A stretch of DNA of 64,000 bases from Phycicoccus sp. (GCA_012927555.1 JABBOX010000232.1:7886-71885), one strand, 5' to 3'; positions 11,781-56,067 are shown, counted from the stretch's first letter. The notes: generated from the sequence alone by a model not told the origin. Translations and numbers: made by a program.

Positions 11781-11888
11781 TCAGGCGGCGATCGAGAGTG
11801 CCGAAGTGATCAGCTCGGTCAGGGCGTCCCTGATCGAGCCAGAGCGCACGACCGCCATCAGCACTGCCGCGAAAGCGCAGGCCGCGAG
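11781..11888 (-). pseudogene. 3' fragment of split DUF4244 (Flp-like pilin) gene
   Basis: The minus strand reads LAACAFAAVLMAVVRSGSIRDALTELITSALSIAA-stop with no start codon and a TAA three codons upstream. It continues in frame from the 5' fragment at 49945-50055. Confidence 0.85.
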
Positions 11889-12140
11889 CGTTCCCTGTTA
11901 GTCGCCCACTCGTCCATCGCAAGCGCTATCCCGACCTACCGCGGGATGACCGCCAGCAGTCCCTTGCCGGCCTTTGGGGGGTATGAGCGAATGGCAGAGG
12001 CGACTCCCACAAATTGGCGAGGTGCGGGTTCGGGTGATGTTTCGGGATCACGCGGATCCCAAAGTCCTCACCAAGCTGATCGAAGCCCTGTTGCCCTCCG
12101 AGCAGCGGATTCAGTCACCGAAGGTAGACATCAAGGCCTC

Positions 12141-13745
12141 GTGAGCCGGCAGGTCAGGATCGTTACCTACGCGAGGGTCTCGACAGCCGAGCAGGTCGAG
12201 AAGGGCACATCGTTGTCGGACCAGAGGCGCCGGCTGGCCGCAGCTGTTACGTCCCGAGCCGCAGAGCTGGTTGAACACTTTGACGATGCTGGTGTTTCAG
12301 GCGTACTTGATTCCCGACCGGGCCTTGACAGGCTGCTGGCGAGAGTCGAGGCCGGAGGTGTGGATGCCGTCATGGCCACCAAGATCGATCGGATCTCTCG
12401 GTCGGCGGTTGGCCTCCTCAATCTTGTAGAGAAGCTGCGTGAACACGGGTGTCATGTCGTACTGATTGACGAAGGCCTCGACACCTCCACTCCCGCCGGC
12501 GATCTGACTTCTGGCGTGTTGGGCGTCATTGGGGGGTGGGAGCGGCGCCGCATATCGGAACGCACACAACAGGGCCGCCGCGCCGCTGCCCAGAATGAAG
12601 GACGATTTGTTTCCTCAACGCCACCGTTCGGATATCGAGTCGTATCAGCGCCAGCCAGGCGAGGCAAACTCTTGGTCAGAGACGACGCGCAGGCGGAGAC
12701 CATTCGGACCATCTTCCAACGACTGATCGTGGACGGCTCGAAGGCAAATACCGTTGTCGCAGAACTGAATTCGGCGGGAATGGCGCCAGCCCGTGCGTCT
12801 GCCTGGTCCGCTACCTCTCTGCGTCGCTGGGCTCTCCGGCAGCCGCCTCTGCGAGCGGCCTCCGGAATCTGGATCTTCGACGGCATCTCCGTCTCGATCC
12901 CAGCGATCCTCACCCAGGCGGAGTCGGCGCAATGGTTCGCATGGCAACAAGGCCGCAGGGGGCCGCAACAGCAGTCCCGGGGCCCTTACCTCTTGTCGGG
13001 CGTTCTCCGGATGCCGTGCGGCCGCGGGGCCATGGGGCGAACCGCTGGAACCCAGCGTCCTACCTACTCATGTCGCGACCACTACCTGCCGATCGCAGAT
13101 CCAAGCCGGCACGGGGCCTGCTTGAACGTCCCGGTCGACGTTGTCGACGGTGCCGTCATCGAACACGTGAGACAGGTACTTGCGGCGCCGGAGGTGCTGC
13201 AACAAGCTGCCGAGCGCTACCTGTTGGGTCCAACCCAACCGGAAGGTGGGTCGGTTGCACTCGAAGCCCAACTACTGGACCTTGACGGACAAATCACCGC
13301 CGACTCGGCCGCACTGCGAGCCGAAGGTCTGAGTGGTCGCGCACTCGGCGCCGCTCTGGTGCCTCTCCATCGTCAACAGCAGGACATAGTCCGAGAGCTC
13401 CGCTCGCTTCACCGTCGTGCCGCCACAGCTGCGCACGTTCGCAATGACGTCCAACTCGCCCGGTTCGTCGCTACAGCCCGACAGGCATTGAGCGAAGACA
13501 CTGTCAGCACGTGGCGCCCCTTGCTGAGCATCCTCCACGCAATCGTCACTATTGACGGCTACACCGCATGCACGCATTGTCACGGGACCGGATTTCTGGG
13601 CCTTGGCTCAGGCGATGGTCGGCGTTGGCCGCTTCGTTGTCCCACATGTCTTAAGGGTCAGACCCCCGATCTCACCGTCGAGCTGGACAACGTCACGGCG
13701 TTCGTTATCGCCGACCGGATTGTCAAGGTGACGGGCCCCAAATGA
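12141..13745 (+). CDS. Large serine recombinase (integrase)
   Basis: Resolvase catalytic N-terminus IVTYARVSTAEQ, a recombinase domain (PPFGYRV), a Cys-containing zinc-ribbon-like region and a coiled-coil tail. The GTG at 12141 is preferred; the ATG at 11991 is possible. The track start at 11196 is rejected. Confidence 0.9.
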   Translation: MSRQVRIVTYARVSTAEQVEKGTSLSDQRRRLAAAVTSRAAELVEHFDDAGVSGVLDSRPGLDRLLARVEAGGVDAVMATKIDRISRSAVGLLNLVEKLREHGCHVVLIDEGLDTSTPAGDLTSGVLGVIGGWERRRISERTQQGRRAAAQNEGRFVSSTPPFGYRVVSAPARRGKLLVRDDAQAETIRTIFQRLIVDGSKANTVVAELNSAGMAPARASAWSATSLRRWALRQPPLRAASGIWIFDGISVSIPAILTQAESAQWFAWQQGRRGPQQQSRGPYLLSGVLRMPCGRGAMGRTAGTQRPTYSCRDHYLPIADPSRHGACLNVPVDVVDGAVIEHVRQVLAAPEVLQQAAERYLLGPTQPEGGSVALEAQLLDLDGQITADSAALRAEGLSGRALGAALVPLHRQQQDIVRELRSLHRRAATAAHVRNDVQLARFVATARQALSEDTVSTWRPLLSILHAIVTIDGYTACTHCHGTGFLGLGSGDGRRWPLRCPTCLKGQTPDLTVELDNVTAFVIADRIVKVTGPK

Positions 13746-14076
13746 CGCCATCTTGCGACCCTTGCGTTGGGGGCGCCAAGGGCCGGTGTCGCTTTCTCAC
13801 CGAACGGCAGCCGTGAGGTTGACCCCGAGGGGCCCCCGGGGTGCAGTTGGCAACTGGAGATTGCGATCTAGGCTGGCGGCGGACATCCCTTTGGTTGGCT
13901 GCGGGGGCCGCGGCGCGGCTGGCGGTGATCAGGGCGCGGCGCCCCATGGGGCTTGGATGAGGATGATCCGGTTGGCCAAGGCGCGGGGTTGAGATCCACG
14001 GTGGGTCGAGACTGGACACGCCCGCTAGCCCGGCGTCGCGGGTCGCACGCTCCTGTGGGGCGCGCGCTGGTCCGGT

Positions 14077-14316
14077 GAGGGCCCCCCGTTCCTGACATCT
14101 CGCGGGCAGCAGGTGTGACCAGTCCACCCCCAGATGCTGGGCCAGCGCTGAAGCGATGGTGTCGGCGTGCGCCGGGGCAGCCGTGGCCACGCGATGGCCC
14201 GGCTGCTCAGCTTCGCCCGCGGCGCGATCAGTTCGGGGCCCCTCGCAGAGCGTCCCCCGCTCACAGGCCCTCTCCGGGCACCGCCGGACTCGCGCGCGCC
14301 ACCGGATCACACTCAT
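14077..14316 (-). pseudogene. ISL3-family transposase N-terminal fragment
   Basis: RWRARVRRCPERACERGT (zf-ISL3-like) and TIASALAQHLGVDWSHL (HTH-like) are followed by out-of-frame-looking Pro/Arg-rich sequence. There is no DDE domain. Confidence 0.4.
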
Positions 14317-14659
14317 TCGGCAGCCGAAGCACGGCGGGTCGATAGCTCATGCGGCCGGCATCGTGGGCGACCGCTCAATTCGATTGATTCCCAACATGTT
14401 TCGCGCACGACTCTCAGCACGGGGCGCATGAGAGCGCTTGCGCGGCGGCCGCCATGGCAATTGCTGTGTCGCCGTCTATGAGCCAGCCGATGCCGACGAA
14501 GACCCTGCTTCTGACAATGAGCGTGATCTCTTCGTCGCCGAAGTCACAAGTACTGGGCTGCGCCAGTGGCGACGGAGAGGAAAGTTGGGTCCTTGCACAC
14601 GAAGCGCAGGCAAGGCAGCAGGCATCGCGCGCGCTTCGCTCGAGACCGCCCAATGAGGA

Positions 14660-15088
14660 TCACCGTCCCATCCGAGTCGGCCCGGGGGCGAGAGCGAGCG
14701 CCCTTCGAGCAAGGGCGGCCACTCGCTCCACCAAACCATCGCTATCAAGATTGTGGAGCTCCTGGGTGACGACGGCGAGAGTGTGGGCCGCCTGCTCGAG
14801 TGCGGCCGCGACGTCGATTCCGGGCAGGGCTGCGGTGGGCGCTGCGCTTTGACCGAGCGCGTGGAGGATGTCGCGCTGGGCGAGATATGCCTCGGTGCCT
14901 ATGCGGTGCAAATCCCACCTTGCCGGTGATGGGATGTCGTTTGTCCACGCGGCCTCGGCGACGGAGTTGAGCAAGTTTGCCGTCTCCCTCAACAGTCGAC
15001 TGCTCTGTGTTTCGGGGCTGATCATCGCCATTTCACCTTCCGTCTCTTCGGCCGAGCAGCTTGTACTGCTCGTCCTTGCCATCGCCAA
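14660..15088 (-). CDS. Hypothetical helical protein
   Basis: 142-aa ORF (alternative start at 15031), last gene of a three-gene minus-strand block. No recognisable motif. Confidence 0.4.
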   Translation of the reverse strand: MAMARTSSTSCSAEETEGEMAMISPETQSSRLLRETANLLNSVAEAAWTNDIPSPARWDLHRIGTEAYLAQRDILHALGQSAAPTAALPGIDVAAALEQAAHTLAVVTQELHNLDSDGLVERVAALARRALALAPGPTRMGR

Positions 15089-15133
15089 GGAGCGGGCAGG
15101 CTCTCTTGGCGGTCATTGAGGTGTGACGTAGCG

Positions 15134-16591
15134 CTATGGCCGGGCAACCCGGGGTGAAACCTGAGCCATGGGCGTGAGGGCCTCGTGTCGGCGGCTGCGA
15201 GGTGCGGTCGCTTCCTGCCCGGATCCGGTGGGTCTGTCTTGGGTGGCTCGGTCGAGACAGGAGGCAGCTGACATGGCGTTGCTGGCGGTCTGCACGAGGG
15301 TGTCGGTGGCATCAACGAGTCCGGCGCGGACCGGTTCGGGGATGGTCACGGTGCGGTTGGCGTAGACATCGCCGGGGGTAACCCAAACAACGTCTTCGCC
15401 GCGGTGACCGCGCTCGGTAGCGCGGTCGATGTCGGCGTTGGCCCGGTGGGACATCGCGCGGGCCGGGCCGGTGAGGTTGGCGTCCTGGGCGGCGACGTCG
15501 CGGATCACGCAGGCGACGTCGACGGCGGCGGACAGGGCCTGTTGGAGGTGCTGGGCGGCTTCGCCCAGGTCGACGCGGCCGGCCATGACATCTGGCCGAG
15601 CCCAGGTGGTCTTGTCGTGGGCGACCTCGCGGACAGCGGCGCGCAGCTCGCCTGCTGCGTGGACCAGGTCCAGGTCGGTGCGGTCGGCGGGGCTGGTCAT
15701 CTCGGCCCACCGGTCGGCGACGTGGGTCCAGGCCTCCTGCGTGGCGTCGAGGCTGGGGGCAAGGCGGTGCTGGTAGGCGTGCGTGTCGACGTGGCCGGTG
15801 CGGGCGCCGGCGTGCAGGATCGCGCCTGCGGCGGTGGCGATGCCAGCCTGGGTCCGTGCGGTCAGCAGCAGGTTGGGAGCGGTGGGGGTGGCGGCCAGCG
15901 TGCGGTGGGCTTGGATGTCCCAGCCGATGAGGGCCTGCTGGAGCCGTTCACTGCCGTAGGGTCCGCGCACATGTTCGCCCTGGGCGGCACGGGCGAACCG
16001 GTTACCGACGTAGGCGCCCGCGAGCTGCTCGAACGCGGCCAGCCTGCTGATGGCGTCCTGCCCTCGGGGCACGCCGCGGCTCTCCCTACTGGATTTCCCG
16101 CGAGTGGACAGTTCCACGTCGGCCACGTGCTCTCGTGCCGCGACACCGACGCCGTGGGCGCCGACGTAGAGGGTGTGCATGATCCGCATGCGGGCGGCGT
16201 CAAGGTCTGCGCGGACCGCAGTGTCCGTCGGTCGGATGTGGCCACCTCGGCGGCCGATGAGGTCAGCTGCTCGGGTGAGCGTCTCGGCGACGTGGAGCAG
16301 CCGCTCGTCGGCGGGGCCGTCGCCAGGCCAGCCCCGCCGGACCTGGGTGCGGTGCATCCCCAAGCTCATCGCCTCGAGTCGCGCCATGGTGACACCGTCG
16401 ATAGGGCCTGTGCCTCCATGGACGGGCTGCGGGAGGGAAGCCCAGAGTTCGGAGGCGGACTGGACGACCTCGCCCCAGGTGCGCAGCATCGCCGGCGCGT
16501 CCTGCCCGGTGACGTCCATGAGGACCTGGCGGGTGCTGAAGTCGGCATCCAGCAGCAGCTCGCCGACGCTGCGCTCGTCCTGGGCGTTCAC
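15134..16591 (-). CDS. Hypothetical 485-aa protein, predicted all-helical
   Basis: Long ORF with balanced composition, unlike the Gly/Val/Asp-rich antisense ORF 15404..17062. GTGA start/stop overlap with the upstream gene. No recognisable domain. Confidence 0.55.
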   Translation of the reverse strand: MNAQDERSVGELLLDADFSTRQVLMDVTGQDAPAMLRTWGEVVQSASELWASLPQPVHGGTGPIDGVTMARLEAMSLGMHRTQVRRGWPGDGPADERLLHVAETLTRAADLIGRRGGHIRPTDTAVRADLDAARMRIMHTLYVGAHGVGVAAREHVADVELSTRGKSSRESRGVPRGQDAISRLAAFEQLAGAYVGNRFARAAQGEHVRGPYGSERLQQALIGWDIQAHRTLAATPTAPNLLLTARTQAGIATAAGAILHAGARTGHVDTHAYQHRLAPSLDATQEAWTHVADRWAEMTSPADRTDLDLVHAAGELRAAVREVAHDKTTWARPDVMAGRVDLGEAAQHLQQALSAAVDVACVIRDVAAQDANLTGPARAMSHRANADIDRATERGHRGEDVVWVTPGDVYANRTVTIPEPVRAGLVDATDTLVQTASNAMSAASCLDRATQDRPTGSGQEATAPRSRRHEALTPMAQVSPRVARP

Positions 16592-16932
16592 GGCGTCGCC
16601 TCACGCACGAGGTCGCAGATGGCCACGACCAGCGGCGAGATCCCGGCCGTCTGGTCCAGGACTGGGATGCTTCGGGTCAGTTCCTCGGCGGCGCGCAGCA
16701 GTTGCGCGACGTCGTCCTGCGCCGGGGGGTGCCCCTTCAGGTCGGCGTCGGCCGGCAGCATGGCCACCGCTTGGCATGAAGCGGTGTGGATCCCAAGGCC
16801 CAGCAGATGCAGATGCGACCGGGGCCCGTCGGCCTCGGCCTGCGCCCACGCGCGGACCGCTGCGTGGCGCAGCAGCCGCGCGACCGCGGCCAGGGTGTCA
16901 CTCGCGTCCTGGTCGATCGTGTCGTTCGCCAT
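16588..16932 (-). CDS. Hypothetical protein
   Basis: 114-aa reading from the ATG at 16932 (MANDTIDQ...), translationally coupled to the 485-aa ORF. Confidence 0.45.
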   Translation of the reverse strand: MANDTIDQDASDTLAAVARLLRHAAVRAWAQAEADGPRSHLHLLGLGIHTASCQAVAMLPADADLKGHPPAQDDVAQLLRAAEELTRSIPVLDQTAGISPLVVAICDLVREATP

Positions 16933-17160
16933 CACAGGTCCAGCTCCTTGTCTCGTGCGGGTCGTTCCTGCCCATCCAGCCATCCGCGCCGGTCTTGGTG
17001 CCGGCCTCGGTCGGCGGCTGTGGATAACTCGCCGCCGTGTCAGAGGTTGGGGCCAGACTTGACCTCGAAGCCCCTAAGGTCGGGTCCGGCCGCTGGCGGC
17101 CACCAGCCGCCCTAATCGAGACAATCGCACTAGTGGCTTCACTGAAGGAGGTGGAGGGCG

Positions 17161-18027
17161 ATGGCACGTTCACCGGGTATGGCGCAGGCGCTGGCCCGGT
17201 CGCCGGGTCTGCTCATTAGCACCGTGCTGACGTGCATGGTCGGTGCCCTGCTCCCGCCGTTGCCGGGCTTGACGCTCTTCGTCGGCGGCCTGGCACTGAC
17301 GGCCGTGCTGTGCGCGGGCGGCCTGGAGCGGCCGGCGGTCCGGCTGCTGGGCGGTGCTCGGGTCTTGAGCGAGGAGGAGGCTGCGGAGCTGGCGCCGGCG
17401 ATCGCACTGCTGTGCCAGAAGGGCCTCGGCCCGCCAGCGGTCGAGCTCTACGCGCGCGACGGCGAGGTGGGGATCAGCGCCGGCGCAGCAGGGCGGCGCA
17501 GCGTCGTGGTGTCTGCCGGGCTCCTGCAGGCCGCCCAGATGGGGCAGCTGCCGGCCGACCAGGCGGCCGGCGTGATCGCCGCGGCGGTCGGATGGATTCG
17601 CCTGGGCCAGACCAGATTCGACGTCGCAGTCGAGCTCTGGACGATTCCGTGGCATCTGGTGCGCGCGGTTGCCCTGGCGATCGCAAAGACGGTCGGCTGG
17701 CTCCCGCTGACCCAATTCGCCTGGCAGATCCGGTTCGTAGTGGCCGCGGTCGCGGTGGCGCAGTCCGTCGCCGACGGCCGGATCGCGGCAGGAGCGGTGG
17801 TGGCCGCCTTCATCGCCCTGACGTACCTGGCCCCACGTTGGCAGAGCCAGTGGGACATGCGCTCACAAGACGACTCCGACCGATTCGTGACCGACCACGA
17901 GCTCGGGGACCCGCTCGCCCGGTTCCTTCGCCGGTGCCCGCCCGAGCCGCGGACACTCCAGCGCATCCACCGCCTGACCGGTCCCCTCGCCCGCCCGTCT
18001 CTTGCTCTGGTGGTCAGCGAACCGTGA
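17161..18027 (+). CDS. Membrane protein, M48-peptidase-like with catalytic motif lost
   Basis: Several TM helices. VVVSAGLL...AAGVIAAAVGWIRLG aligns by eye with the M48 pattern VVtdGLL...aVlAHElgHi, but H, E and H are replaced by A, A and W. Confidence 0.45.
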   Translation: MARSPGMAQALARSPGLLISTVLTCMVGALLPPLPGLTLFVGGLALTAVLCAGGLERPAVRLLGGARVLSEEEAAELAPAIALLCQKGLGPPAVELYARDGEVGISAGAAGRRSVVVSAGLLQAAQMGQLPADQAAGVIAAAVGWIRLGQTRFDVAVELWTIPWHLVRAVALAIAKTVGWLPLTQFAWQIRFVVAAVAVAQSVADGRIAAGAVVAAFIALTYLAPRWQSQWDMRSQDDSDRFVTDHELGDPLARFLRRCPPEPRTLQRIHRLTGPLARPSLALVVSEP

Positions 18028-18061
18028 GCCTGGTGCGCTCACCTTCCCCCAGAATGGGGTC

Positions 18062-18307
18062 ATGGCCTATCCGTCTCGGCCCGTCCTTGAGGTGCTGCCA
18101 CAGTTCCGCGGCACCGCGTTGGTGCGCCAGAATACGGATCAGAGGCGGCGGCTGATCGAGTTCGTGGCTCTCGAGTACCAGCGCGGCCGGTCGTTGAGGG
18201 AGCTGGCTGAGCTGACAGGGCGGACCCAGGCTGCGGTGCGGCGGGCTCTCGACCAGGCGGGCGTGGCCCGTCGAGGCCGAGGGGCGCAGCCCATCAGATA
18301 TTCGTGA
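18062..18307 (+). CDS. Small helix-turn-helix protein
   Basis: 81-aa reading from an internal ATG. RSLRELAELTGRTQAAVRRAL resembles a sigma-70 region 4 / HTH motif. Confidence 0.5.
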   Translation: MAYPSRPVLEVLPQFRGTALVRQNTDQRRRLIEFVALEYQRGRSLRELAELTGRTQAAVRRALDQAGVARRGRGAQPIRYS

Positions 18308-18687
18308 GGCAACCGGTTGCGCGGCGCAGCCTCTAGATCGGTTAGGCGATCCGTCGGCACGACCGCGTCTGACCAGCCGTGAGGAGGCTCAGCGCATGGG
18401 CTCGAACCAGGACTTCAATCCTTCTGGCCGGTAACTGCCTGCCAGATTGCGTTCGGCCCCCGGGTGCTTCACGCGCCGACCGATGATGAGCGCAACTCGT
18501 GCAGCCACCCTTCCTCAAGCAACAGGTCGTCACGACGACCACGGGCCGGCGGCTCATGCTCACCGGCACGGCCTCCCGCCACCGTGTGGTATCAAGAGCA
18601 CCTGATCAACCACACCGCCCTGCACCGGTCGCCATTTCCAGTGCCGCCGCGGCCAGGGCCAGCCCTCCCGGAATGGCGGCGGGTGAA

Positions 18688-19896
18688 TCACAAGACGACT
18701 TCGGCAGACTCAGGTTGGAGGATCTTGTCGAGCAGCGCGGCCACCTGCGACTCGATGTCTGTCACGTCCTGCCCCAGGTCGATACGGTGAATCACGAGGC
18801 TCACCTGAGTCCCGGTGATGTCGAACGGCTCCGGACGGGGCTCTCCCGCCGCGTAGATGAGATGCCCCCTCGACAGGCCCAGCCGCCCGCAGTAGGTCAC
18901 GAGTTGGTAGGCGTCGTCGTTGGAGATCTTGCCCCGGTCGCCGAGCAGCTTGTACTTGGTGTCCGCGACCGCGATCGGGTCGCCGTCAAGGTCGTTGAAG
19001 ACGAGGTCAGGCTTGATCGACAAAAGGCCGCCAAGTCCGTCCAGGTCGAAGGTCTTCTGTGAGACCAGGTCTGGGTACCTCTCCCAGAGCAGCCGGGCCA
19101 CGAGCTTCTCGAACAGCCATGCCAGGTTGATGACGAAACCGTGGGTCTGTGTCGGGCCGGCCGCATGTTCGACGCTGGTGTGTGCGATCACCAGGTCGGC
19201 CAGGTGCAGCAGCCGATGAAGGCGGACGTTGAGCCGGGTGGGCGTCCACCCGGCAAGAGGAGCCCCGCGCGGGCCCACCCACACCTCGGAGAGCAGCCGG
19301 TCGAGGCGCATCAAGCCGACGCGAGCTCGCAGCGGCACCTCGGACAGCTCCAGTAGACGCTGGGAAGCGGCGCGGATGCGACGGTTCTCGTCGGTGTCCA
19401 GCGTCCACTCATCGAAGGTCACCTCGAGGGGTGAGAGCACGCCGTGCCGGCGCAGGTACTGGTCCCGCAAACGCAGCCGACCACGCAGTACGGGAAGGGT
19501 CTGGTCCTCGGTGCGGTATCCACGCAGCGGACCGCCGGCCATCGCACGGTCGACCTCAAGCGCGAACAGCACCGCCAGCACGGCCGACAGATCCGCGTCG
19601 TGTCCGAGCTCGACTGTGCTTGGGTCGATCGTCAACCCCGCCACCCCGTACGCCCGGGCCAGCAGCGTCAGGACCTTGACCACCCCAACCTTGGGAGTGA
19701 CCCGTACGACGAAGTCGCCGATCCGAACGACGCCCACGGTGTACGCCGCGGTGACGCGCCATCCATCGCCCTCCGGCTGAGCCGTGACAAGCTTGCTCCG
19801 GTTTAGCTCTGCGGCCTGGGCCAGCGTCAGCGCGACGGGGTAGACGCTTTGCCCCTCGTCGAGGGCATCTAGCTCACTCCGAGACACCGGCGTCAC
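18688..19896 (-). CDS. mcrC: McrC-like restriction endonuclease subunit
   Basis: 402-aa ORF with the PD-(D/E)xK-like segment IKPDLVFNDLDGDPIAVADTKYK. It overlaps the McrB stop by 23 bp. Confidence 0.85.
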   Translation of the reverse strand: MTPVSRSELDALDEGQSVYPVALTLAQAAELNRSKLVTAQPEGDGWRVTAAYTVGVVRIGDFVVRVTPKVGVVKVLTLLARAYGVAGLTIDPSTVELGHDADLSAVLAVLFALEVDRAMAGGPLRGYRTEDQTLPVLRGRLRLRDQYLRRHGVLSPLEVTFDEWTLDTDENRRIRAASQRLLELSEVPLRARVGLMRLDRLLSEVWVGPRGAPLAGWTPTRLNVRLHRLLHLADLVIAHTSVEHAAGPTQTHGFVINLAWLFEKLVARLLWERYPDLVSQKTFDLDGLGGLLSIKPDLVFNDLDGDPIAVADTKYKLLGDRGKISNDDAYQLVTYCGRLGLSRGHLIYAAGEPRPEPFDITGTQVSLVIHRIDLGQDVTDIESQVAALLDKILQPESAEVVL

Positions 19897-40096: not shown

Positions 40097-40108
40097 CAAG
40101 ATGCGCAT

Positions 40109-41696: not shown

Positions 41697-41729
41697 CTAT
41701 GCCGTGGACAATGCTGTCGCTGGGGCTAG
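41697..41729 (-). pseudogene. Displaced 3' end of the FtsX-type permease gene
   Basis: The minus strand reads (L)APATALSTA-stop, completing ...GIYPAVRAALLA from 43925 upward. 1198 nt plus 29 nt gives 409 codons once one CTAG copy is removed. Confidence 0.75.
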
Positions 41730-41789
41730 CCGGGTATTCCGCACATGCGCGGGTGTGGGGGGTCTTGGGTGTCTGGTGGTCTTCCATTT

Positions 41790-43412
41790 TTATCGTGGTT
41801 GGGTGGGGTCGACGCCGAGCAGTCGCAGGATGTTGGCTTGTAGCGGTGGTGGTTCGGGGATGACGGGTGGGGTCTGGTGCGTGGCGGGGATTAGCCGGAG
41901 CCGGGACAGGGCCGTGAAGATGAGTCTGCCGGTGGGTTTGGCTGGTCGTCCTGCGTAGAGCCCGGCCAGGACGTGTGCGGGGGCGATGGCTAGGCGGAGT
42001 GCTCGTTCGACGAGGCAGAAGATGAGTAGTGCCAGGCAGATGACGGTGATGAGGGCTTCGATGCGCCGGTTGTTCTTCAGGAACATGGGGGCGACCGCGA
42101 GGGGTCCTTTGATGCTGCTGTAGCGGCGTTCGACGGCTTCTTGGCCTTTGTAGCGGCGCAGTACCTCGGCGGCGTCGGCGGTTTCGGGGTCCAGGTTGGT
42201 CAGTAGCGCGTACCAGCCGTCGGTGGCTGCTTCGGCGGTGAGCGCGCCGTCGTCGAAGTGCCAGCTCAGGGTGGGTTTGCCGGTAGCGGGGTCGGTGGCG
42301 ATGTCGGCTTGTAGGTAGCCGGTCACGCGGCGCGCGGTGCCGATGGCGCTGACGCGTTGTTGGACGGTTTGGGCGTCGGGGTAGTGGCGACCGCCGAGGC
42401 CGCGTTCCAGCCGGGCGAGGTCATCGCTGGCCCGGGCGAGTTTCTTGGTCCGGGCGAGTTGGGCGGCGCCGGTGCGAGTGGAGGACCAGACGAAAACCCG
42501 GCGCAGGACCAGGGTTGGTCCTTTGGTGGCCTTGGGCGGGGCCATCGCCATGGTGTCTTCGCGGACCCGCCAGCGGCCACGGAGCTCGGGTGCCCTGCCG
42601 AGGTCCCGCTCGGCCACGTGATGCACCTGCGTGGTGGGCTGGAGGTGTTGGGCGGCCAAGGTGGGGGCCTTGACGTAGGTCTTGGACGCCGGCGCGATGA
42701 ACTGGACGCCGGCGTCGTCCATGGCGCGCAGGTTCGGGTAGGAGACGAGTTTGGAGTCGCCCACCATCAGGAACTTGCGTGGTCCGGCGAGCTTGCGCAG
42801 CGACTCCATCGCGGCGGTGACCTGGGAGACCTCGCCGGCTCCGCCGTGGTAGGCCCGGTGGAATACCGGCACCCCACCGTCGCCGGTCACCGCGAGCCCG
42901 GCCTGGATTTGTTTGAGGTCTGTTCGCCGGTCCTTGGGGTGGCCGAATCGTGGCGTGGCGAAACCTTCCTGGGCATCCCGATAGTCGCCATAGAGGCTGA
43001 TCGAGGTCATGTCCCAGTGGAGCCGGGCCACGTCGAGCCCGAAGGCTGCGATGGCCGTTGCCCCGACCGAACCGACGATGTGCTCCAGTTCGGGGGCGAT
43101 CGCGTCCAGGGCCCGGCCGATCCGGTCGTCATTGAGCGCAGCCGGGTCGATACCGAAGATCTCCTCGGTCGCCCACGCCGCCGCCCAGTGCGCAACATGC
43201 ACCAGCGGTGTCGGCGAGGTCAGCCGGTTAGCTACCAGGGCCTCGATCACCTGCCCGTGGGTGAGCAATGCCAGGTCCCGGACCGGGCAGGCCCGGTCCA
43301 CGATGGCGGCGATATCCAGGCGCCGGGCGAACTCCGCGACCACCGGCAACGCCCCCAGAGCCTTGTCCACCACCACCGTCGGCGGTCCGTAGCTGATCCG
43401 GTTTCGTGACAC
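41790..43412 (-). CDS. IS1634-family DDE transposase
   Basis: 540-aa ORF with VHVAHWAA, LHWDMTSISLYGDY and IAPASK patterns typical of actinobacterial IS1634 transposases. Confidence 0.85.
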   Translation of the reverse strand: MSRNRISYGPPTVVVDKALGALPVVAEFARRLDIAAIVDRACPVRDLALLTHGQVIEALVANRLTSPTPLVHVAHWAAAWATEEIFGIDPAALNDDRIGRALDAIAPELEHIVGSVGATAIAAFGLDVARLHWDMTSISLYGDYRDAQEGFATPRFGHPKDRRTDLKQIQAGLAVTGDGGVPVFHRAYHGGAGEVSQVTAAMESLRKLAGPRKFLMVGDSKLVSYPNLRAMDDAGVQFIAPASKTYVKAPTLAAQHLQPTTQVHHVAERDLGRAPELRGRWRVREDTMAMAPPKATKGPTLVLRRVFVWSSTRTGAAQLARTKKLARASDDLARLERGLGGRHYPDAQTVQQRVSAIGTARRVTGYLQADIATDPATGKPTLSWHFDDGALTAEAATDGWYALLTNLDPETADAAEVLRRYKGQEAVERRYSSIKGPLAVAPMFLKNNRRIEALITVICLALLIFCLVERALRLAIAPAHVLAGLYAGRPAKPTGRLIFTALSRLRLIPATHQTPPVIPEPPPLQANILRLLGVDPTQPR

Positions 43413-43512
43413 GTGAAACCTCCTGCGCTCGGTGGCTACCCATCAGTTCTTGAAGCGTATACGCTTCAAGAATGATCGTGATGTGGCGACACGCAGACAC
43501 CAGGTGGCGTTG

Positions 43513-43857
43513 ATGGCTGAGCCCGGCCGGCGCCAACGCCGAACCCAGGCCCGGCTCGCCCGTGAACTCGCCGTGATCGGGTTCGCGCTACCCGGAAGCC
43601 TCGTATGGCGCAGTACAGCCTGCGGGAAGACCGGCTGTCGCTGCCAAGGCGACCCGCCGGACCTGCACGGCCCCTACCTCACCTGGACCCGGGCTGCGGC
43701 CGGTAAGACCATCACCCGAAGAATCACCCCCGAGCAGCAGCAGCGCTACCAGGACTGGTTCGACAACGCCCGCCGGCTCCACCAGCTCGTCACCGAACTC
43801 CAGGCCCTGTCCCTACAAGCATTCGACGAAGCCGAGGACTCTCCCCGACGCCGCTGA
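43513..43857 (+). CDS. Small Cys-containing protein carried by the IS (DUF6788-like)
   Basis: GSLVWRSTACGKTGCRCQGDPPDLHGPYLTWTR pattern. It lies inside the IS boundaries. Start taken at an internal ATG. Confidence 0.5.
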   Translation: MAEPGRRQRRTQARLARELAVIGFALPGSLVWRSTACGKTGCRCQGDPPDLHGPYLTWTRAAAGKTITRRITPEQQQRYQDWFDNARRLHQLVTELQALSLQAFDEAEDSPRRR

Positions 43858-43924
43858 CCTACCTGCTGAGCGACGCCAGGCCACACCCAGCCAGCCCACC
43901 GACATCCATGTGCGGAATACCCGG

Positions 43925-45122
43925 CTAGCAGTGCGGCTCTTACAGCTGGGTAGATGCCGGCGGCGACCCCGATCGGGACGGTCGCGAGCACACCGCCGAA
44001 GGTCACCCACGGTGGGACGACTACTGGCCAGTTCTGGTAGCCCGAGTAGGCGGCTGTCACTGCCGCGCCCAGGAGCGCTCCCGCCGTACCGCCCAACAGC
44101 GAAAGCAGGAGCGACTCCGTCAGGAACTGGACTCGGATCTGGCCCCGGGTGGCGCCCAGGGCTCGGCGAAGGCCGATCTCGGAGCGCCGCTCCAGGACGG
44201 AGATGACCATGGTGTTCGCCACCCCGACGCCACCCACGACGAGAGCGACCAGACCCAGACCCAGCAGCATCCCGCTAAGGGCAGCCTGGGTCTCCCGTTG
44301 TGCGGTAAGCGCATCTGAGGGTCTGGAAATCTTCACCTCATACGGGCTCTGCGGGTTCGCGGTGGCGCCCAGAACGGATCGAACGTCCTCCACTCGCGCG
44401 GGGACCGACCTGGAGTACACCGTCGTCGGGTGTCCGTCGAAGCCCAGATATGTCTTCGCCGCGGGCCATCCGACCAACGCTGCCGAGTCGAGCTCAGGTG
44501 CCAGCGCAACCGCGTCCAAGGTGCCGACGACGCTAAACCACTGACCTCCCAACCACACCCGGCCGCCGGGCCTGTCGACGCCCAGACGCTCCGCGGCGCT
44601 TGCGCCCAGAACCACCCCGGGGTACGTAGCGGTGGCCTGGTTGAGCCACTTTCCGGTGCTCATGTGCCCGCCGACCGTCGGCAGCAGGTCAAGCTGTGCG
44701 GCCAGCACGGCGAGGCTGCTGGTTCGCGCCGAAGGGATGTGGGCGTTGCGGTAGACGTTCGCGTTCACCTTGCCGGTCGCAGTGGCTGACTGGACCGGGG
44801 CGATCCTGCGGACCATGGGGACTGCCTCAACGGGGAGCTTCGCCCGCTCGCCAAACAGGGTGCTTCCGGGGCTAACGGTGAGCAGGTTCGTGCCAAGGCG
44901 GTCGAGTCGGGCGTCGATGTCGGCCCTGCTCGATGCGGAGATTCCCACGACCGCGACCATGGCGCCGATACCGATCGCGATCCCTAACGCGGCCAGTGCC
45001 ACCCGCAGCGGGCGGGCACGCAGACCGGACACCCCCACCCGCCATACGTCCACCAGTCTCAACCGGGATGGGCGACTGTTGCATCGGCGTGCGCCGTTCC
45101 AGCGGTCGACGACAGCTGTCAT
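43925..45122 (-). CDS. MacB/FtsX-type ABC transporter permease, 3' end interrupted by IS1634
   Basis: N-terminal TM helix LAALGIAIGIGAMVAV, a large extracytoplasmic loop, and a C-terminal FtsX region ending GIYPAVRAALLA at the IS boundary. The tail of the track ORF (43746-43924) is IS-derived. Confidence 0.8.
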
Positions 45123-45856
45123 GGCGCGCTCAATTGTGAGGCGCCTGCAACGATCCGACCGTCACGCATGGCCACTTGTCTGGGCAAGCTTGCCGCAATC
45201 TGGGGGTCGTGCGTGATCACCAGCACCGTTGTCCCGGCTCGGTTCAGCTCGCGAAGGATCGCCATGACTGCGGCCCCGGACTTGCTGTCCAGGTTCCCTG
45301 TCGGCTCGTCTGCGAGAATCAGTTTGGGCCCCCCCACGATGGCGCGGGCGATCGCGACGCGTTGTCGCTCACCGCCGGACAGCTCGTGCGGTCGATGGTG
45401 GATGCGGCGGCCGAGTCCGACCCCTTCCAGCGCGGACGCCGCGCGAGCCCGGCGTTCAGCCCGTGGCACGCCCGCGTACAGCAGGCCGTCGGCGACGTTG
45501 TCGATTGCCGACACCCCGGTCGCCAAATGGAACTGCTGAAAGACGAACCCGATTGTGGTTGACCGCAGCGCCGACAGTGCCCGGTCGGACAGGCCGGAGA
45601 CGTCCACACCGTCGATTTCCACGCGGCCTGTGGTTGGCCGGTCTAGGGTCCCGACGATGTTCAGCATCGTCGACTTACCCGATCCCGAGGCGCCGACGAT
45701 CCCCAGCATCTCCCCGGGCTCGACGGTCAAGGTGACGTCGCTCAGGGCGCGGACCATGCCCGGGTACTCCTTGGACACCCCGGACAGGTGAACTACACGG
45801 GTCCGTTCTGCCGCGCTCGCGCGCCTCCCGCGGTCAGGGCGAACGTCGGTTGTCAC
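45119..45856 (-). CDS. ABC transporter ATP-binding protein (MacB-type)
   Basis: Walker A GASGSGKST, signature LSGGERQRVAIARA and Walker B ILADEPTGNLD. Confidence 0.92.
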   Translation of the reverse strand: MTTDVRPDRGRRASAAERTRVVHLSGVSKEYPGMVRALSDVTLTVEPGEMLGIVGASGSGKSTMLNIVGTLDRPTTGRVEIDGVDVSGLSDRALSALRSTTIGFVFQQFHLATGVSAIDNVADGLLYAGVPRAERRARAASALEGVGLGRRIHHRPHELSGGERQRVAIARAIVGGPKLILADEPTGNLDSKSGAAVMAILRELNRAGTTVLVITHDPQIAASLPRQVAMRDGRIVAGASQLSAP

Positions 45857-46932
45857 GACGCCACCCGAACGACCAGTCCGGGGCGCAGCCCGGTCCCGGT
45901 GACTTCGACGCGCCCCTCGGAGAACAGGCCCGTCTTTACGGCGACGAGCTGGCTGTGGCCGTGGTCGACCAGTTCCACCCCGTATCCGCCCTCCGCGAGC
46001 GCGAGGAGTGCCGCCACAGGGACGGTCAGCACCCCCTTGCGCTCCCGCGTGGTGTGTCGCACCTGCACGGGGGCTTGACCTGAGGCGCCCAGGGCGCGCG
46101 CGTCGCTCAAGGCCACCGTGACCGTGATGGTTGGTGGGACGCCTGAGGTGAACGATTCCGCCCCAGAGGAAACCTGAGGCCCGGGTACCGGGGCCCCGAC
46201 CGTCAAGACTGACCCGGGAGTGGTTTTCCCATCTGGGCCAACCACCAGCACCTTGGTCCCCGGAACGGCCCAGGTCGCGTTTTCAACAGGAACGTCTGCC
46301 GTGACCATCTGTGACCGGCCTGTCACGCCCAGGATCTGGGCGGGCGAGGTGGCGCCAACGCTCACCGCTTGCGACGACACCCGTAGGGGCCCGCTTGTGA
46401 ACACCACCCGACCTAGGTCGACAGCCCCGGTGCTGTCCAGCCCGACCTCCTTCTGCCAACGTTTGACCGCATCTGCTGTGTACCTTGTGTAGCTGCTGTC
46501 GACCGTGAATCCCGTGTACCCCAAGGTGTGAAGGTTCTCCTCGAACTGCCGCACATCGTTGCCCTTGACCCCAACGCTCAGGGCTCTGTACATGGGCAGG
46601 GCCCCTGACATGAGGATGATCGGTTTGTCGTCGACCTTGGCGAGCACCCCACCCTGGGTGACAGTGGCGCCTGGCGCCGCCAGCCAGGTGATCGTGCCGG
46701 GAACCTTCGAGTCGACCTGCCATGGGGTCCCGTAGTTCAGCGAACCCGTCACCGTCTCGGCCTCCACCAGCGTTTCCTGGGTGACGGTCGCGGTGACCAG
46801 TCGCGGACCGCTGGGGACGGCCGTTCTTGTCTCGTGCCGCGAGGACACGATTGCAGTTGCGCCCACCAGGAGGGCTACCCCAACCGCCGAGACGACGCCG
46901 ACAGCGCCCCGGCGTGAAGTGAGAGGACTCAT
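45853..46932 (-). CDS. Periplasmic-adaptor-like protein with peptidoglycan-binding domain
   Basis: N-terminal TM helix. PG_binding_1-like segment VRQFEENLHTLGY...AVKRWQKEVGL and a beta-rich HlyD-like remainder. Overlaps the ABC ATPase start. Confidence 0.65.
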   Translation of the reverse strand: MSPLTSRRGAVGVVSAVGVALLVGATAIVSSRHETRTAVPSGPRLVTATVTQETLVEAETVTGSLNYGTPWQVDSKVPGTITWLAAPGATVTQGGVLAKVDDKPIILMSGALPMYRALSVGVKGNDVRQFEENLHTLGYTGFTVDSSYTRYTADAVKRWQKEVGLDSTGAVDLGRVVFTSGPLRVSSQAVSVGATSPAQILGVTGRSQMVTADVPVENATWAVPGTKVLVVGPDGKTTPGSVLTVGAPVPGPQVSSGAESFTSGVPPTITVTVALSDARALGASGQAPVQVRHTTRERKGVLTVPVAALLALAEGGYGVELVDHGHSQLVAVKTGLFSEGRVEVTGTGLRPGLVVRVAS

Positions 46933-47471
46933 CCGCCCACCACCCCCTTGCCGGGTGTTATGGGTGCAATGTTCTGGCAGGCCTGCATCGCGGACGTCAG
47001 ATGCGGATCAGCCTTGAGGCGTCGCGCAAGATCATCGCTCATCTTCGGGTCGCCAGTGTCCGGGTCCGGGTCCGGGTAGTCAGAAACCCCATGACTGCGG
47101 ATGCACATGGAGTACTGGCGTCTCTTCTCGATGTCCTGAGCTGCCGGTCGTGGTGACTCTTGGGCGCTTGAGAGGAACCCCTTGCATGCGGCCATGGCGC
47201 CCCCGACCCTGTCCAGTGGCGTCCTACCCTTATCGACTTGTGGGATGCCCTCGCTGGTGAGCTCATCCACCATGACGACGCCGTGACCGCGCATGCAATC
47301 GATGTACTGCTGGGCCTGGCGTGCCCGGTCCGGGCTGGATGACGAAGCGGTGGCGCCGGGTCGGGAGGCGGTCGCCACGCCGGGTGCGTCTTGGTGGGCG
47401 CAGCCGGTCAGGAAAGTGACGGCTGCCAACACAGCGGCCGGACCGAAGAATCGTGCGGAGGGTGTGCGCAT
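46929..47471 (-). CDS. Secreted lipoprotein, unknown function
   Basis: Signal peptide with lipobox LTGC. Paired Cys-containing repeats (CMRGHG / CIRSHG). Confidence 0.6.
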   Translation of the reverse strand: MRTPSARFFGPAAVLAAVTFLTGCAHQDAPGVATASRPGATASSSSPDRARQAQQYIDCMRGHGVVMVDELTSEGIPQVDKGRTPLDRVGGAMAACKGFLSSAQESPRPAAQDIEKRRQYSMCIRSHGVSDYPDPDPDTGDPKMSDDLARRLKADPHLTSAMQACQNIAPITPGKGVVGG

Positions 47472-47632
47472 CGGGAATACTCCTCTCAGGTATGGCACTA
47501 GGGAACCTGAGAGCCGATAAACCAGCCGTAAGCGTTCTCCCTTATCCGCCCCTTATGCAGCGTTTGGGAACATTGCCAGAAGTACTGTCAGTTGCGGTCG
47601 CAAGGGCCACACGTCCCGAAAAGGAGAGGCCG

Positions 47633-48289
47633 ATGCGCGTCCTCGTGGTCGAAGATGAAGTCCTGCTCGCCGACGCCGTCGCCACCGGCCTACGCCGCGA
47701 GGCCCTGGCGGTTGACGTCGTCCACGATGGGTTGACAGCGCTACAACAGATCGGCGTCAACGACTATGACGTCATCATCTTGGACCGCGACTTGCCTGGG
47801 ATGCACGGGGACGACGTATGCCGTGCTGTCACCAGTTCCACCACGCCGGCCATGGTGTTGATGCTCACCGCCGCAGCTGAGCTCGCCGACAGGGTGGCTG
47901 GTCTGTCCCTGGGAGCCGACGACTACCTGGCCAAGCCGTTCGCCTTCACCGAACTCGTTGCCCGGGTCCGAGCGTTGGGCCGTCGTGCCCGACCAAACGC
48001 GTCTCCAGTGATCGAGCGTGCGGGCCTCACCGTCAATCCTTCGCGCAGAGAAGTCTTCCGCGACGGCGCATACATCCCGTTGTCGCTGAAGGAGTTCGCC
48101 GTCCTTGAGGAACTGCTCCGAGCAGACGGCGCCATCGTCAGCGCCGAACAGCTACTCGAACGGGCGTGGGACGAGAACATCGACCCGTTCACAAACGTCG
48201 TCCGAGTCGCCATGCACAGCCTTCGACGCAAACTCGGCGATCCGCCGCTCATCCGCACCGTGCGCGGTGCGGGGTACCAGATCCCATGA
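47633..48289 (+). CDS. OmpR-family response regulator
   Basis: MRVLVVEDE...DVIILDRDLPG receiver domain and a winged-helix C-terminus ending RGAGYQI. RBS AAGGAGAGG upstream of the ATG at 47633. Confidence 0.92.
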   Translation: MRVLVVEDEVLLADAVATGLRREALAVDVVHDGLTALQQIGVNDYDVIILDRDLPGMHGDDVCRAVTSSTTPAMVLMLTAAAELADRVAGLSLGADDYLAKPFAFTELVARVRALGRRARPNASPVIERAGLTVNPSRREVFRDGAYIPLSLKEFAVLEELLRADGAIVSAEQLLERAWDENIDPFTNVVRVAMHSLRRKLGDPPLIRTVRGAGYQIP

Positions 48290-49479
48290 GACCCCGCCGG
48301 TGGACCGTCCGAATACGGCTAACCATGCTGTACGGCGGGTTGGTATTGGTCGCCGGCGCGGCTGTGCTCGCTGGCGTGCTGATCATGCTCGATCGGGTCA
48401 TCGCCACCCAGCCCATCGTCCTCGACTCGGCCTACGTCGAGCGACTCACCGCCGCTTCGACGTTCCCCGGAGCCAACCAAGACACCGACCAACGCCGCGC
48501 AAAGGAGGAAGTCCTTAAGGCCACCGAGGACCTCCGCGCCGACCTGCGAAACCGAACGCTGACCCCACTGATCGGCCCGAGCCTGGTCGGACTGTCCATC
48601 CTCGGTGTCGCCAGCTTGGCGACCGGCTGGTTCGTCGCAGGCCGTGCGCTGCGCCCGATCCAGCAGATAACGGCAACCGCGCAAGCCGTGGCAACGGGCC
48701 GACTGGACTCGCGCATCGCGCTGACCGGGCCAAGGGACGAACTGCGCAAGCTCGCGGACACCTTCGACGCCATGCTGGACCGACTCCACGAGGCATCGGC
48801 CAGTCAGCGAGCGTTCATCGGGAACGCCTCGCACGAACTCAAGACCCCCGTGGCGATCAACCGCACCCTGGTTGACGTGGCCTTGACCGACCCCGACGCC
48901 TCCCCCGACCTGATACGGCTGGGCCACTCCCTGCAAGAAGTGAACATGCGTCAGCAGCGACTCATCGATGGCCTGCTAGCCCTAGCCCAAGCCGGCAACA
49001 TGCTCACCAAACACCAGGAGGCGAGCCTTGATGACATCGCCCGCACCACCATCGACCGGTACCAGGGCGAGGCAGAACAACGAAGAATTCTCGTCAAGTC
49101 AAGCCTGCACCCTGCACCACTGACCGGAGACCCGGTCCTGTTGGAGCGCCTAGTCGAGAACCTCATCCAGAACGCAGTCGTACACAACACCAACAGCGGC
49201 GGCTGGATCACCGTCCGGACCTGCCAGGCTGGTGACGCCGTGCAACTCCTGGTGGCCAATAGTGGGCCCGTCGTTCCAACAGCCAGCATTGCCAACCTCT
49301 TCGAGCCCTTCCGTCGACCGACCGACCGGGTCGACTCGGCCGCAGGCTCGGGGCTTGGCCTGTCCATCGTGCGAACCGTGGCCGAGGCACACGGGGGAAC
49401 AGCAGAAGCCATGGCCCCACGAAGCGGTGGCCTCTCCGTCGAAGTCGTCTTGCCAGGATCCGAACGAACCACGGACTGA
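48286..49479 (+). CDS. Sensor histidine kinase
   Basis: ATGA overlap with the regulator. Two TM helices, a HAMP region, the H-box FIGNASHELKTP, and N and G boxes (HNT...GSGLGLSIV). Confidence 0.9.
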   Translation: MRPRRWTVRIRLTMLYGGLVLVAGAAVLAGVLIMLDRVIATQPIVLDSAYVERLTAASTFPGANQDTDQRRAKEEVLKATEDLRADLRNRTLTPLIGPSLVGLSILGVASLATGWFVAGRALRPIQQITATAQAVATGRLDSRIALTGPRDELRKLADTFDAMLDRLHEASASQRAFIGNASHELKTPVAINRTLVDVALTDPDASPDLIRLGHSLQEVNMRQQRLIDGLLALAQAGNMLTKHQEASLDDIARTTIDRYQGEAEQRRILVKSSLHPAPLTGDPVLLERLVENLIQNAVVHNTNSGGWITVRTCQAGDAVQLLVANSGPVVPTASIANLFEPFRRPTDRVDSAAGSGLGLSIVRTVAEAHGGTAEAMAPRSGGLSVEVVLPGSERTTD

Positions 49480-49944
49480 CTAGCGCTGCGGGAGGGCTCC
49501 TTTTGCGGGTGGCGCCGGACGCGGGCTTTGATGACTTCTACGAAGCCGTTGCTGTGTACACCTGGCTCGGCAAACACATCGAGATTGGGTCCGTCCCGCG
49601 CGTTTGTGCGAGATTGCCGAGATCCTGGAACGGTATTTGTCTATGGAGAAGCCGCAAGAACATCATGGATGATGATCGATCGAGGGGAGCCGCCGGAGCA
49701 GGTCCCACTTGTAGGCCCGGCCGCTGTCTCGGCCGCGGGCCATTGCCCCGCGCGGGCAGCTTGTTCGCCAGGTCGCCTTTGGAGCCGGTGTGGCCAGGCG
49801 TCGATATCGCGGCGCCACCGGGCTTCGGCATCTTTGGCCAGTTTGGCCCCGTCGCGGTCGCCACAGGCAACGATCACCTAGAGACAAGTCCACTTGAGCG
49901 CGCGGCTGGCCGGGTCACGACGGGGAAGTATGCTGCGAACATGA

Positions 49945-50055
49945 CGCGAGGGTGCCCACTGCATACTCCGCGGTGGTCATCCCCGCCTGTGCTCTTCCCA
50001 CCAGCTGCTCGCACCGGCCCATCAGTGTCTGCCAAAGACGTCGATAGATCTTCAT
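49945..50055 (-). pseudogene. 5' fragment of split DUF4244 (Flp-like pilin) gene
   Basis: RBS AAAGGAGA, then MKIYRRLWQTLMGRCEQLVGRAQAGMTTAEYAVGTLA up to the core. Beyond the core the ORF runs into island DNA (SCSQHTSPS-stop at 49915). Confidence 0.85.
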
Positions 50056-54831: not shown

Positions 54832-54854
54832 GCCCTGAGCCTAGAGTTCCCCAC

Positions 54855-56057: not shown

Positions 56058-56067
56058 TCTGTAGCCC

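Follow-up and report, generated by a model that had tools for sequence, protein, structure and literature searches.

How did a pilin gene come to lie in two pieces 38 kb apart, and would removal of the DNA between them restore it? This question is raised by a 64,000-nucleotide stretch of Phycicoccus sp. DNA (GCA_012927555.1, JABBOX010000232.1:7886-71885; here referred to as the window), in which a first-pass annotation had described a 38-kb island, bordered by the gene for a large serine recombinase (LSR), inside flp, the DUF4244 (Flp-like) prepilin gene of a helicase-linked Tad locus. The analyses reported here confirm this arrangement, with an island of 38,056 bp. They also make it very probable that the island belongs to a horizontally mobile family and integrated into flp by recombination between the attachment sites attP and attB, inactivating the pilin gene, and that its excision would restore the gene.

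A 38,056-bp insertion in flp

The minus-strand open reading frame (ORF) that starts at 50055, with the ribosome-binding site AAAGGAGA located 7 nt 5' of its ATG, encodes MKIYRRLWQTLMGRCEQLVGRAQAGMTTAEYAVGTLA and then continues into the foreign residues SCSQHTSPS and a stop codon, such that the interrupted ORF extends to 49915 and comprises 46 aa. At the other end of the island, the minus strand of 11888..11781 encodes LAACAFAAVLMAVVRSGSIRDALTELITSALSIAA followed by a stop codon; here, an in-frame stop codon lies three codons before the crossover (…D-stop-QGT/LAACAF, with the slash at the crossover), and there is no start codon between this stop codon and the junction. The possibility that the island supplies a replacement end for the gene is ruled out by the foreign end of the attR fusion and by the stop codon, with no start codon after it, on the attL side. 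The two halves of flp, the ribosome-binding site, and the hexamer CGCGAG that is common to both junctions and is bordered by differing outer bases are all present exactly as the first-pass annotation had described them.

Joined across the common core, the two halves encode a prepilin of 70 aa with the motif G25-MTTAEY, and the hydrophobic helix is complete only once the halves have been joined. The joined ORF matches the Pfam profile PF14029 (DUF4244) with 79.5 bits (cut-off 27), and this match, between residues 21-67 and profile positions 8-54 of 54, spans the junction. Using the criteria for Flp prepilins of PMC4322843, we found that the rebuilt flp has the small size (50-80 aa), the G/xxxxEY motif, the hydrophobic helix of ~20 residues, and the position between tadC and tadE-like genes that characterize such a prepilin. 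A second Flp-like ORF was not found in the window.

A search with the rebuilt ORF identified P0001, a DUF4244 protein of 70 aa from a metagenome-assembled genome (MAG) of Phycicoccus sp. (GCA_012927545.1), which is 100% identical to the query over its full length; accordingly, the 5' half of flp in the window is identical to residues 1-37 of P0001. The contig that encodes P0001 (L001; 8,177 bp) matches the window from 11895 to 5048 with 2 mismatches in 6,848 nt and from 51283 to 49945 with 4 mismatches in 1,339 nt, and these two matches abut on the shared core. In a three-way alignment, each of the window junctions tracks L001 as far as the core and then departs from it, while the gene strand of L001 reads …GCAGTGGGCACC-CTCGCG-GCCTGCGC…, which is exactly the predicted attB. 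These data demonstrate the insertion, its exact boundaries and the intact allele, and they place the insertion point at codons 36-37 of the 70-codon flp. Because P0001 is 100% identical to the fusion and its contig is collinear with both flanks and attB, the split is not due to chance. Both the fusion and the attB that would result from excision thus occur unaltered in a relative, and the in-frame restoration of a 70-aa ORF that had been predicted corresponds to a natural allele.

The flanks of the island differ from L001 by only 6 substitutions in 8.2 kb (99.97% identity), which argues that the event was very recent. The window therefore carries a 38,056-bp insertion that is recent relative to the near-identical genome, and, given this Phycicoccus contig with an empty site, the window host is a Phycicoccus (Intrasporangiaceae, Micrococcales). 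A second contig of the same MAG spans 62699..51109 of the window at 99.67% identity. Four more distant contigs (L002-L005; about 92% nucleotide identity) are likewise uninterrupted and have the same synteny, in the order tadZ-cpaF-tadB-tadC-flp-tadE-x, an ORF on the opposite strand, helicase, STAS, and H+-PPase; the order tadB-tadC-flp-tadE is present in all of the empty sites L001-L005.

The reconstructed attP contains …GCGAACATGACGCGAGCGTTCCCTGTTAG… and the reconstructed attB …GCGCAGGCCGCGAGGGTGCCCACTGC… (junction sequences GAACATGACGCGAGCGTTCCCTGTTA and GCAGGCCGCGAGGGTGCCCACTGC, respectively), and both att junctions in the window are unmutated relative to attB. The sites of LSRs require a nonpalindromic central dinucleotide. 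The best dyad symmetry of attB and attP is centered on the same AG, i.e., the last two bases of CGCGAG, with scores of 10 and 11 of 20 arm positions, while the arms of the two sites otherwise differ. At the Knoellia locipacati junction described below, where the host side reads …GCCAG/CGTTCCC (slash at the junction), only this AG (or CAG) is in common. The symmetry and this comparison point to AG as the probable crossover dinucleotide. The crossover lies within residues 25-43, the prepilin block with the highest conservation (at least 90% among the best 120 homologues; conserved sequence at the target, …AEYAVGTLAACAFAA…), which accounts for the use of one site by the family in different genera.

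A clade of serine recombinases with a recurrent target

The LSR gene begins 252 bp inside the left junction and is intact, in agreement with the 534-aa gene that had been placed about 250 bp from this junction. The protein contains a resolvase domain (PF00239; 129.6 bits, residues 7-153), which also has resolvase/integrase matches in the PDB, with the catalytic motif YARVS, of which Y10, R12, and S14 are invariant in an alignment of the clade. The PF07508 Recombinase domain scores 23.8 bits (cut-off 21.1). The zinc ribbon (PF13408) scores 19.3 bits, which is below the cut-off of 25.3; C293, C311, and C327 are invariant in the clade, and the C terminus contains an additional CxxC...CxxC. Among PHROGs, the protein matches the integrase family phrog_95 with 243 bits over residues 3-433. 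Thus, it has the hallmarks of serine integrases, i.e., a catalytic serine domain, a recombinase domain and a zinc ribbon in a C-terminal extension of >300 aa, and a gene adjoining an attP with a short core. These features suggest that the LSR may currently be active. A 99%-identical copy is present in other sequencing runs (P0121, with 36 member sequences); the contig that carries such a copy (L021) ends 107 bp upstream of the gene, before the junction. A close LSR was not found in the phage, plasmid, and IMG/VR collections, in which the best match was at most about 30% identical.

We followed the relatives of the window LSR to their contigs and to one genome per species (185,579 species representatives). 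LSRs of the clade are present in seven species (nine loci) among these representatives. In ten further loci, the 3' half of a DUF4244 gene, starting at residue 34-36, is located ~250 bp upstream of a clade LSR. These loci are in Knoellia sp. S7-12 (L007), MAG MFD01721 (L008/L015), K. locipacati (L010), K. aerolata (L012), an Actinomycetales MAG (L013), Segeticoccus rhizosphaerae (L014), a Dermatophilaceae MAG (L016), Ornithinimicrobium cavernae (L017), O. humiphilum (L103), and a contig from a JGI metagenome (L104), and their LSRs range from 89% down to 43% identity to that of the window. The N-terminal over-extension of another relative (P0122; LSR 93% identical) is likewise the antisense of a DUF4244 3' half. 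The MrfA-type helicase is syntenic with the window in 8 of the 10 loci, and H+-PPase in 6. In the alignment of the junctions, a conserved host arm (…GCGAAGGCGCAGGCNGCNAG) is followed by the island arm CGYTCCCTGT in most members. We found no TadC within 10 kb downstream of the LSRs of the family, which implies that all the related islands are >10 kb. A 68-aa "DUF4244" gene beside the O. humiphilum LSR was rejected as a real pilin gene; it is an ORF that runs out of the island and has no G/xxxxEY leader.

The similarity of the LSRs is uncoupled from that of the host genes. Between the window and K. locipacati, the LSRs are 88-89% identical, compared to 66% for the helicase, 77% for H+-PPase, and 70% for the flp 3' half, while for Ornithinimicrobium the helicase, at 63-69%, is more similar than the LSR, at 43%. 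The LSR thus has a history of its own, and hence one of horizontal transfer. The cargo also varies and includes type I restriction-modification genes in O. humiphilum, catechol and muconate catabolism genes in Knoellia sp. S7-12, genes for an Xre regulator with an M78 peptidase, ADH, and TetR in MAG MFD01721, and genes for SIR2, an AEP primase, and a DprA-like protein in the locus L006. Some relatives carry an element regulator of the ImmR/ImmA type, and no ImmR/ImmA pair was found in the window island. Together, these loci demonstrate that flp is a recurrent target and that the family is horizontally mobile.

Two Knoellia genomes contain two clade LSRs each in the same orientation, 71 kb apart in K. 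locipacati (CP087730.1; L010/L011) and about 19 kb apart in K. aerolata (contig18; L012/L018). Only the first LSR of each pair adjoins an flp 3' half. An attempt to interpret the second copies as markers of preserved attP sites was rejected, as their upstream arm resembles neither the P arm of the window nor attB. The second LSR gene of K. aerolata is a truncated one that continues into an ORF for a tyrosine integrase (PF00589; P0147), to which it is fused. The paired arrangement suggests tandem or nested accretion of islands.

Island cargo and the host locus

The coordinates of the island, the att sites, the cargo, and the neighboring genes are listed in Table 1. The flanking genes agree with those previously assigned (helicase and TadE-like genes on the left; TadC, TadB, CpaF, and a CpaE-like gene on the right), with the gene at the right end here typed as ParA/TadZ-like. 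The left flank also carries H+-PPase.

Table 1. Features of the window referred to in the text (strand given where it applies)
Feature	Coordinates	Strand	Remarks
Inserted island	11889..49944		38,056 bp; absent from the otherwise near-identical L001
attL common core CGCGAG	11883..11888		Probable crossover dinucleotide AG at 11887-11888
attR common core CGCGAG	49945..49950		Probable crossover dinucleotide AG at 49949-49950
5' half of flp (DUF4244) prepilin gene	49945..50055	-	Leader, G/xxxxEY motif, first helix residues
3' half of flp	11781..11888	-	Residues 36-70 and stop codon; without start codon
Large serine recombinase	12141..13745	+	534 aa, intact; Resolvase, Recombinase, Zn_ribbon_recom
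MrfA/HRQ1-type DEAD-box helicase with DUF1998 (MZB) domain	7894..10347	+	Conserved left neighbor of the Tad locus
Rv3654c-family TadE-like gene	about 10889-11323	-	TIGR03816, 69.8 bits; downstream of flp
TadE-like gene	about 11338-11676	-	Downstream of flp
TadC, TadB, CpaF/TadA ATPase, ParA/TadZ-like gene	50117..53605	-	Upstream of flp
485-aa and 131-aa ORFs (-); 288-aa multipass membrane ORF and HTH_58 protein (+)	15134..18307		Conserved module
McrC-like (402 aa) and McrB-like AAA_5 with Mrr_N (890 aa)	18688..22546	-	Type IV restriction module
DISARM/Druantia/Dpd-like defense cluster	22543..34692	-	
DDE transposase (DDE_Tnp_1_4), insertion sequence element	34843..36222	-	
GmrSD/NsnA-like nuclease, RiboL-PSP HEPN protein, HTH_17 and PIN pair	37392..40690	+	
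Insertion sequence element, DUF4277 and DDE transposase	41725..43929	-	44-nt terminal inverted repeats
MacB-type ABC transporter (FtsX permease, ATPase), PG_binding protein, response regulator and histidine kinase	43746..49479		

No genes for phage structural, packaging, or lysis functions were found among the island ORFs tested against Pfam and PHROGs, the integrase aside. With this absence of PHROG phage hallmarks, no close LSR in phages, and no clade LSR on IMG/VR contigs, we ruled out that the island is a prophage. Similarly, searches of the window island with Pfam and NCBIfam found no FtsK/Tra translocase, type IV secretion system, relaxase, or Rep, with four ORFs at 15134-18307 remaining without assignment; an integrative and conjugative element is, therefore, not supported. 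The module formed by these four ORFs also occurs, at 40-50% amino acid identity, in the Knoellia islands that begin with the second LSR copies. Searches of Pfam, NCBIfam, PHROGs, and PADLOC and of PDB sequences gave nothing for the 485-, 131-, and 288-aa ORFs, and the sole match within the module is the helix-turn-helix domain. We note this module as a candidate for functions in excision control or transfer. Downstream of the LSR gene, a segment of ~200 nt (14302-14503) is 78% identical to 11671-11871 of L011, i.e., the island headed by the second LSR of K. locipacati. The two copies of this segment share no ORF, and a part of it (GCTCAATTCGATTGATTCCCAACA) is unusually rich in AT. The segment has no match in Rfam; it may represent a regulatory site or a noncoding RNA.

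The defense cluster encodes an N6 methylase resembling DrmMI, an SNF2 helicase of the DpdE/DrmD type (953 aa; 995 bits against a DpdE model), and a DruE-like protein with DEAD and DUF1998 domains (1771 aa). Within this cluster, an ORF at 24837-26522 (561 aa, minus strand) overlaps the methylase ORF at 22543-25275 by about 440 nt, its C-terminal third resembles out-of-frame low-complexity sequence, and the N6_Mtase domain begins at residue 22 of the downstream methylase ORF. The ORFs across 22543-26522 probably derive from a single DrmMI/PglX-like gene (about 1,300 aa) that is broken by a frameshift, which may be genuine or may stem from the assembly. A direct repeat of 64 nt (84% identical; 39113-39176 and 40922-40985) flanks the HTH_17 and PIN pair as if this pair were a small inserted cassette. 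The inverted repeats of the DUF4277/DDE insertion sequence element are located at 41725-41768 and 43886-43929, of which the right one overlaps the end of the ORF for the FtsX permease (43746-45122) on its 3' side, such that the element may have changed the end of that gene.

Within the right flank, a match to the Rfam 6C RNA (RF01066; 51.8 bits, gathering score 47) at 53494-53568 on the minus strand lies in the 5' part of the ParA/TadZ-like ORF (52640-53605), and the start of this gene may therefore sit further downstream than the longest ORF implies. MAG GCA_012927545.1 splits into two contigs inside tadB (at about 51100-51300 of the window), and the N-terminal part of its TadB is only 94.8% identical to that of the window, compared to 100% for CpaF, which points to a local patch of strain variation beside the pilin gene.

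An accessory island weighed against its alternatives

We propose that the 38,056-bp island entered flp at codons 36-37 by LSR-mediated recombination of attP with attB. The LSRs of the family would recognize the DNA for the most conserved part of the prepilin, and the family could in this way spread between Micrococcales genera. Its cargo is accessory and differs from island to island, in the window being mainly antiphage defense. The insertion leaves the pilin with no more than the beginning of its hydrophobic helix and parts the downstream tadE-like genes from the promoter of the tad operon, whereas excision by recombination of attL with attR, which would need a recombination directionality factor (RDF), would restore flp exactly. 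Because neither hybrid junction rebuilds a pilin, loss of the Tad pilus is the expected phenotype, and as long as flp is occupied by the island, cells most likely do not produce this pilus. The tadE-like genes (10889..11676) are now separated by the island from tadZ-cpaF-tadB-tadC and lie downstream of the divergently oriented LSR gene, which makes polarity likely. The patchy presence in close relatives, the variable cargo, and the uncoupled similarities of LSR and host genes describe an accessory, horizontally mobile island family rather than a vertically maintained developmental element.

Several observations weigh against this proposal. With 10-11 of 20 positions, the dyad symmetry lends only modest support to AG as the crossover, and L001 could have kept an ancestral empty site instead of having lost an island by excision. 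The related islands were traced at the attL side, and the window is the one locus in which the corresponding 5' half was observed. No RDF was recognized in the island, and neither was any conjugation or packaging machinery. Finally, the attP circle junction, searched for as the 24-mer GAACATGACGCGAGCGTTCCCTGT, had 0 matches in the JGI metagenomes; because the pattern common to attB and attR (CGCGAGGGTGCCCACTGCATACTC) also had 0 matches in these metagenomes, this negative result is weak.

The first-pass annotation had gone further and suggested a regulated, reversible switch as in skin/SpoIVCA and SPbeta/SprA. According to this idea, timed excision by the LSR and an RDF rebuilds flp and turns on Tad piliation, followed by re-integration or confined to a subpopulation, as for skin/sigK, SPbeta/spsM, gin/gerE, and Listeria phi10403S/comK. 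It is consistent with a perfect ORF on excision, predicted in silico and in line with the gene-intervening elements skin, SPbeta, gin, vfbin, and the cyanobacterial fdxN/nifD elements, with an intact LSR gene adjoining attL, with the coexistence of occupied and empty sites at 99.97% flank identity, and with the proven precedent of gin in gerE, in which a small gene is interrupted by a nonphage LSR element that carries restriction genes (PMC5595907). Nevertheless, our data do not support it, and we regard it as very unlikely. The island is not stably retained in the lineage, as the close relatives L001-L005, including L001 at 99.97% identity, are all empty; the family is rare, variable in cargo, and horizontally transferred, with the LSR more conserved than the host genes between genera (88-89% versus 66-77%); and some relatives have regulation of the element type (ImmR/ImmA-like). 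Moreover, no RDF was recognized, and no attP junction was found in the JGI metagenomes, a collection that also lacks the attB/attR pattern. The host genera are not known to sporulate and have no known terminal cell type, so excision would risk loss of the island. A dead insertion, in which the island is immobile and flp a plain pseudogene of the lineage, appears about as improbable. Some decay is suggested by the two insertion sequence elements and by the methylase gene with its probable frameshift, and RDF and transfer genes were not recognized, whereas the LSR gene has an intact frame and retains every invariant residue, neither att junction carries a mutation with respect to attB, and the flanks have accumulated only 6 substitutions in 8.2 kb. 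An assembly artifact or chimeric join has next to no probability: nothing specific speaks for it beyond the lack of a record in the assembly collection for the exact window LSR, FtsX permease, and 46-aa truncated Flp, while both breakpoints coincide with a common core of 6 bp next to an LSR gene, and ten independent assemblies, complete genomes among them, show this architecture as well.

A different possibility, which would be compatible with the proposed accessory island and conceivably add a selective reason for its target, is that the target serves the island. By analogy, knockout of flp would block DNA uptake that depends on the Tad pilus and, hence, deletion of the island by transformation, and it might also remove a pilus-dependent phage receptor. 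Flp/Tad pili are needed for transformation in Micrococcus luteus (PMC4322843), mobile elements recurrently insert in competence genes (PMC4774983, PMC11441513, PMC12378983), and in the family the same codon is used in 11 loci, with stop codons flanking both hybrid junctions such that the gene is destroyed. On the other hand, a role in DNA uptake for the helicase-linked Tad locus or for DUF4244 pilins in these genera is by analogy only, and integrases often pick a conserved sequence just for its conservation; we therefore consider this idea rather unlikely. A bolder version combines it with the switch: the family would be specialized on flp because pilus loss benefits the island, and excision and re-integration by LSR and RDF would make Tad piliation or competence phase variable in nonsporulating actinobacteria. 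We consider this version doubtful and speculative, but if it were true, phase-variable piliation would represent the first switch by a gene-intervening element in organisms other than endospore formers and heterocystous cyanobacteria, and no earlier one would have involved a pilin gene.

Within the literature searched, DUF4244 flp appears to be undescribed as an integration target, consistent with the claim of the first-pass annotation that no intervening element is described in a Tad/Flp pilin gene. The literature that names DUF4244 contains nothing on integration, no work combining serine recombinase, attB, pilin, and Tad was found, and a survey of attB sites of Mycobacterium prophages mentions no pilin site. 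Reviews describe SCO4848 only as the phiBT1 target that is cotranscribed with SCO4849; the phiBT1 attB is not known to encode an AEY/Flp motif, and we did not count it as a precedent. A 2025 review on mobile elements in competence genes explicitly omits the Flp/Tad pilus. Work on Vibrio harveyi that contains both "Flp pilin" and "attB" was rejected as a precedent, as it concerns a prophage-encoded Flp and not integration into flp.

The LSRs described here form a new, phylogenetically coherent clade with one fully reconstructed set of attB, attP, attL, and attR and ten further attL junctions, which is directly usable for building integrase tools for high-GC actinobacteria. They illustrate that, in Micrococcales, an LSR can carry a defense island into a gene for a pilus, and they provide a testable link between mobile elements and the function of the Tad pilus (adhesion, DNA uptake, phage reception) in a group in which this pilus is poorly understood. 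If excision is regulated, they would extend the idea of gene-intervening elements beyond spore formers.

Serine integrases that disrupt host genes include those of Bxb1 in groEL1, phiC31 and phiBT1 in Streptomyces ORFs, and A118 and phi10403S in comK, as well as the Ccr recombinases of SCCmec. The window island shares with these systems the LSR domains, an attP beside the integrase gene, a short nonpalindromic core, and an intragenic attB in a conserved coding sequence, while its LSR is at most about 28-30% identical to the phage and plasmid LSRs searched. It also resembles AbaR in comM and the prophages in comK and comYC (PMC4774983, PMC11441513, PMC12378983) in that a gene related to type IV filaments is recurrently and site-specifically disrupted by accessory islands; it differs from them in that the role of the window Tad locus in DNA uptake is an analogy with M. 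luteus (PMC4322843). As in skin/SpoIVCA (sigK) and SPbeta/SprA-SprB (spsM) of B. subtilis (PMC4191935, PMC5499854), an LSR-bounded element lies within a coding gene, and recombination of attL with attR would restore the frame; those elements are prophages or prophage derived and are excised in a terminal mother cell under the control of sporulation sigma factors, whereas the window island is without phage genes. In the case of gin in gerE of Bacillus cereus ATCC 10987, sporulation-specific excision by the LSR GirC with the RDF GirX has been demonstrated experimentally (PMC5595907). The target of gin is a sporulation regulator, excision is proven, and the RDF is known, whereas here a pilin gene is the target in a nonsporulating actinobacterium and excision is predicted. 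Otherwise, gin and the window island are alike: both are nonprophage islands of about 29-38 kb with restriction/defense cargo, LSR att sites, and no conjugation genes, both split a very small gene (225 bp for gerE and 213 bp for flp), and in both precise excision rebuilds, or here would rebuild, the ORF.

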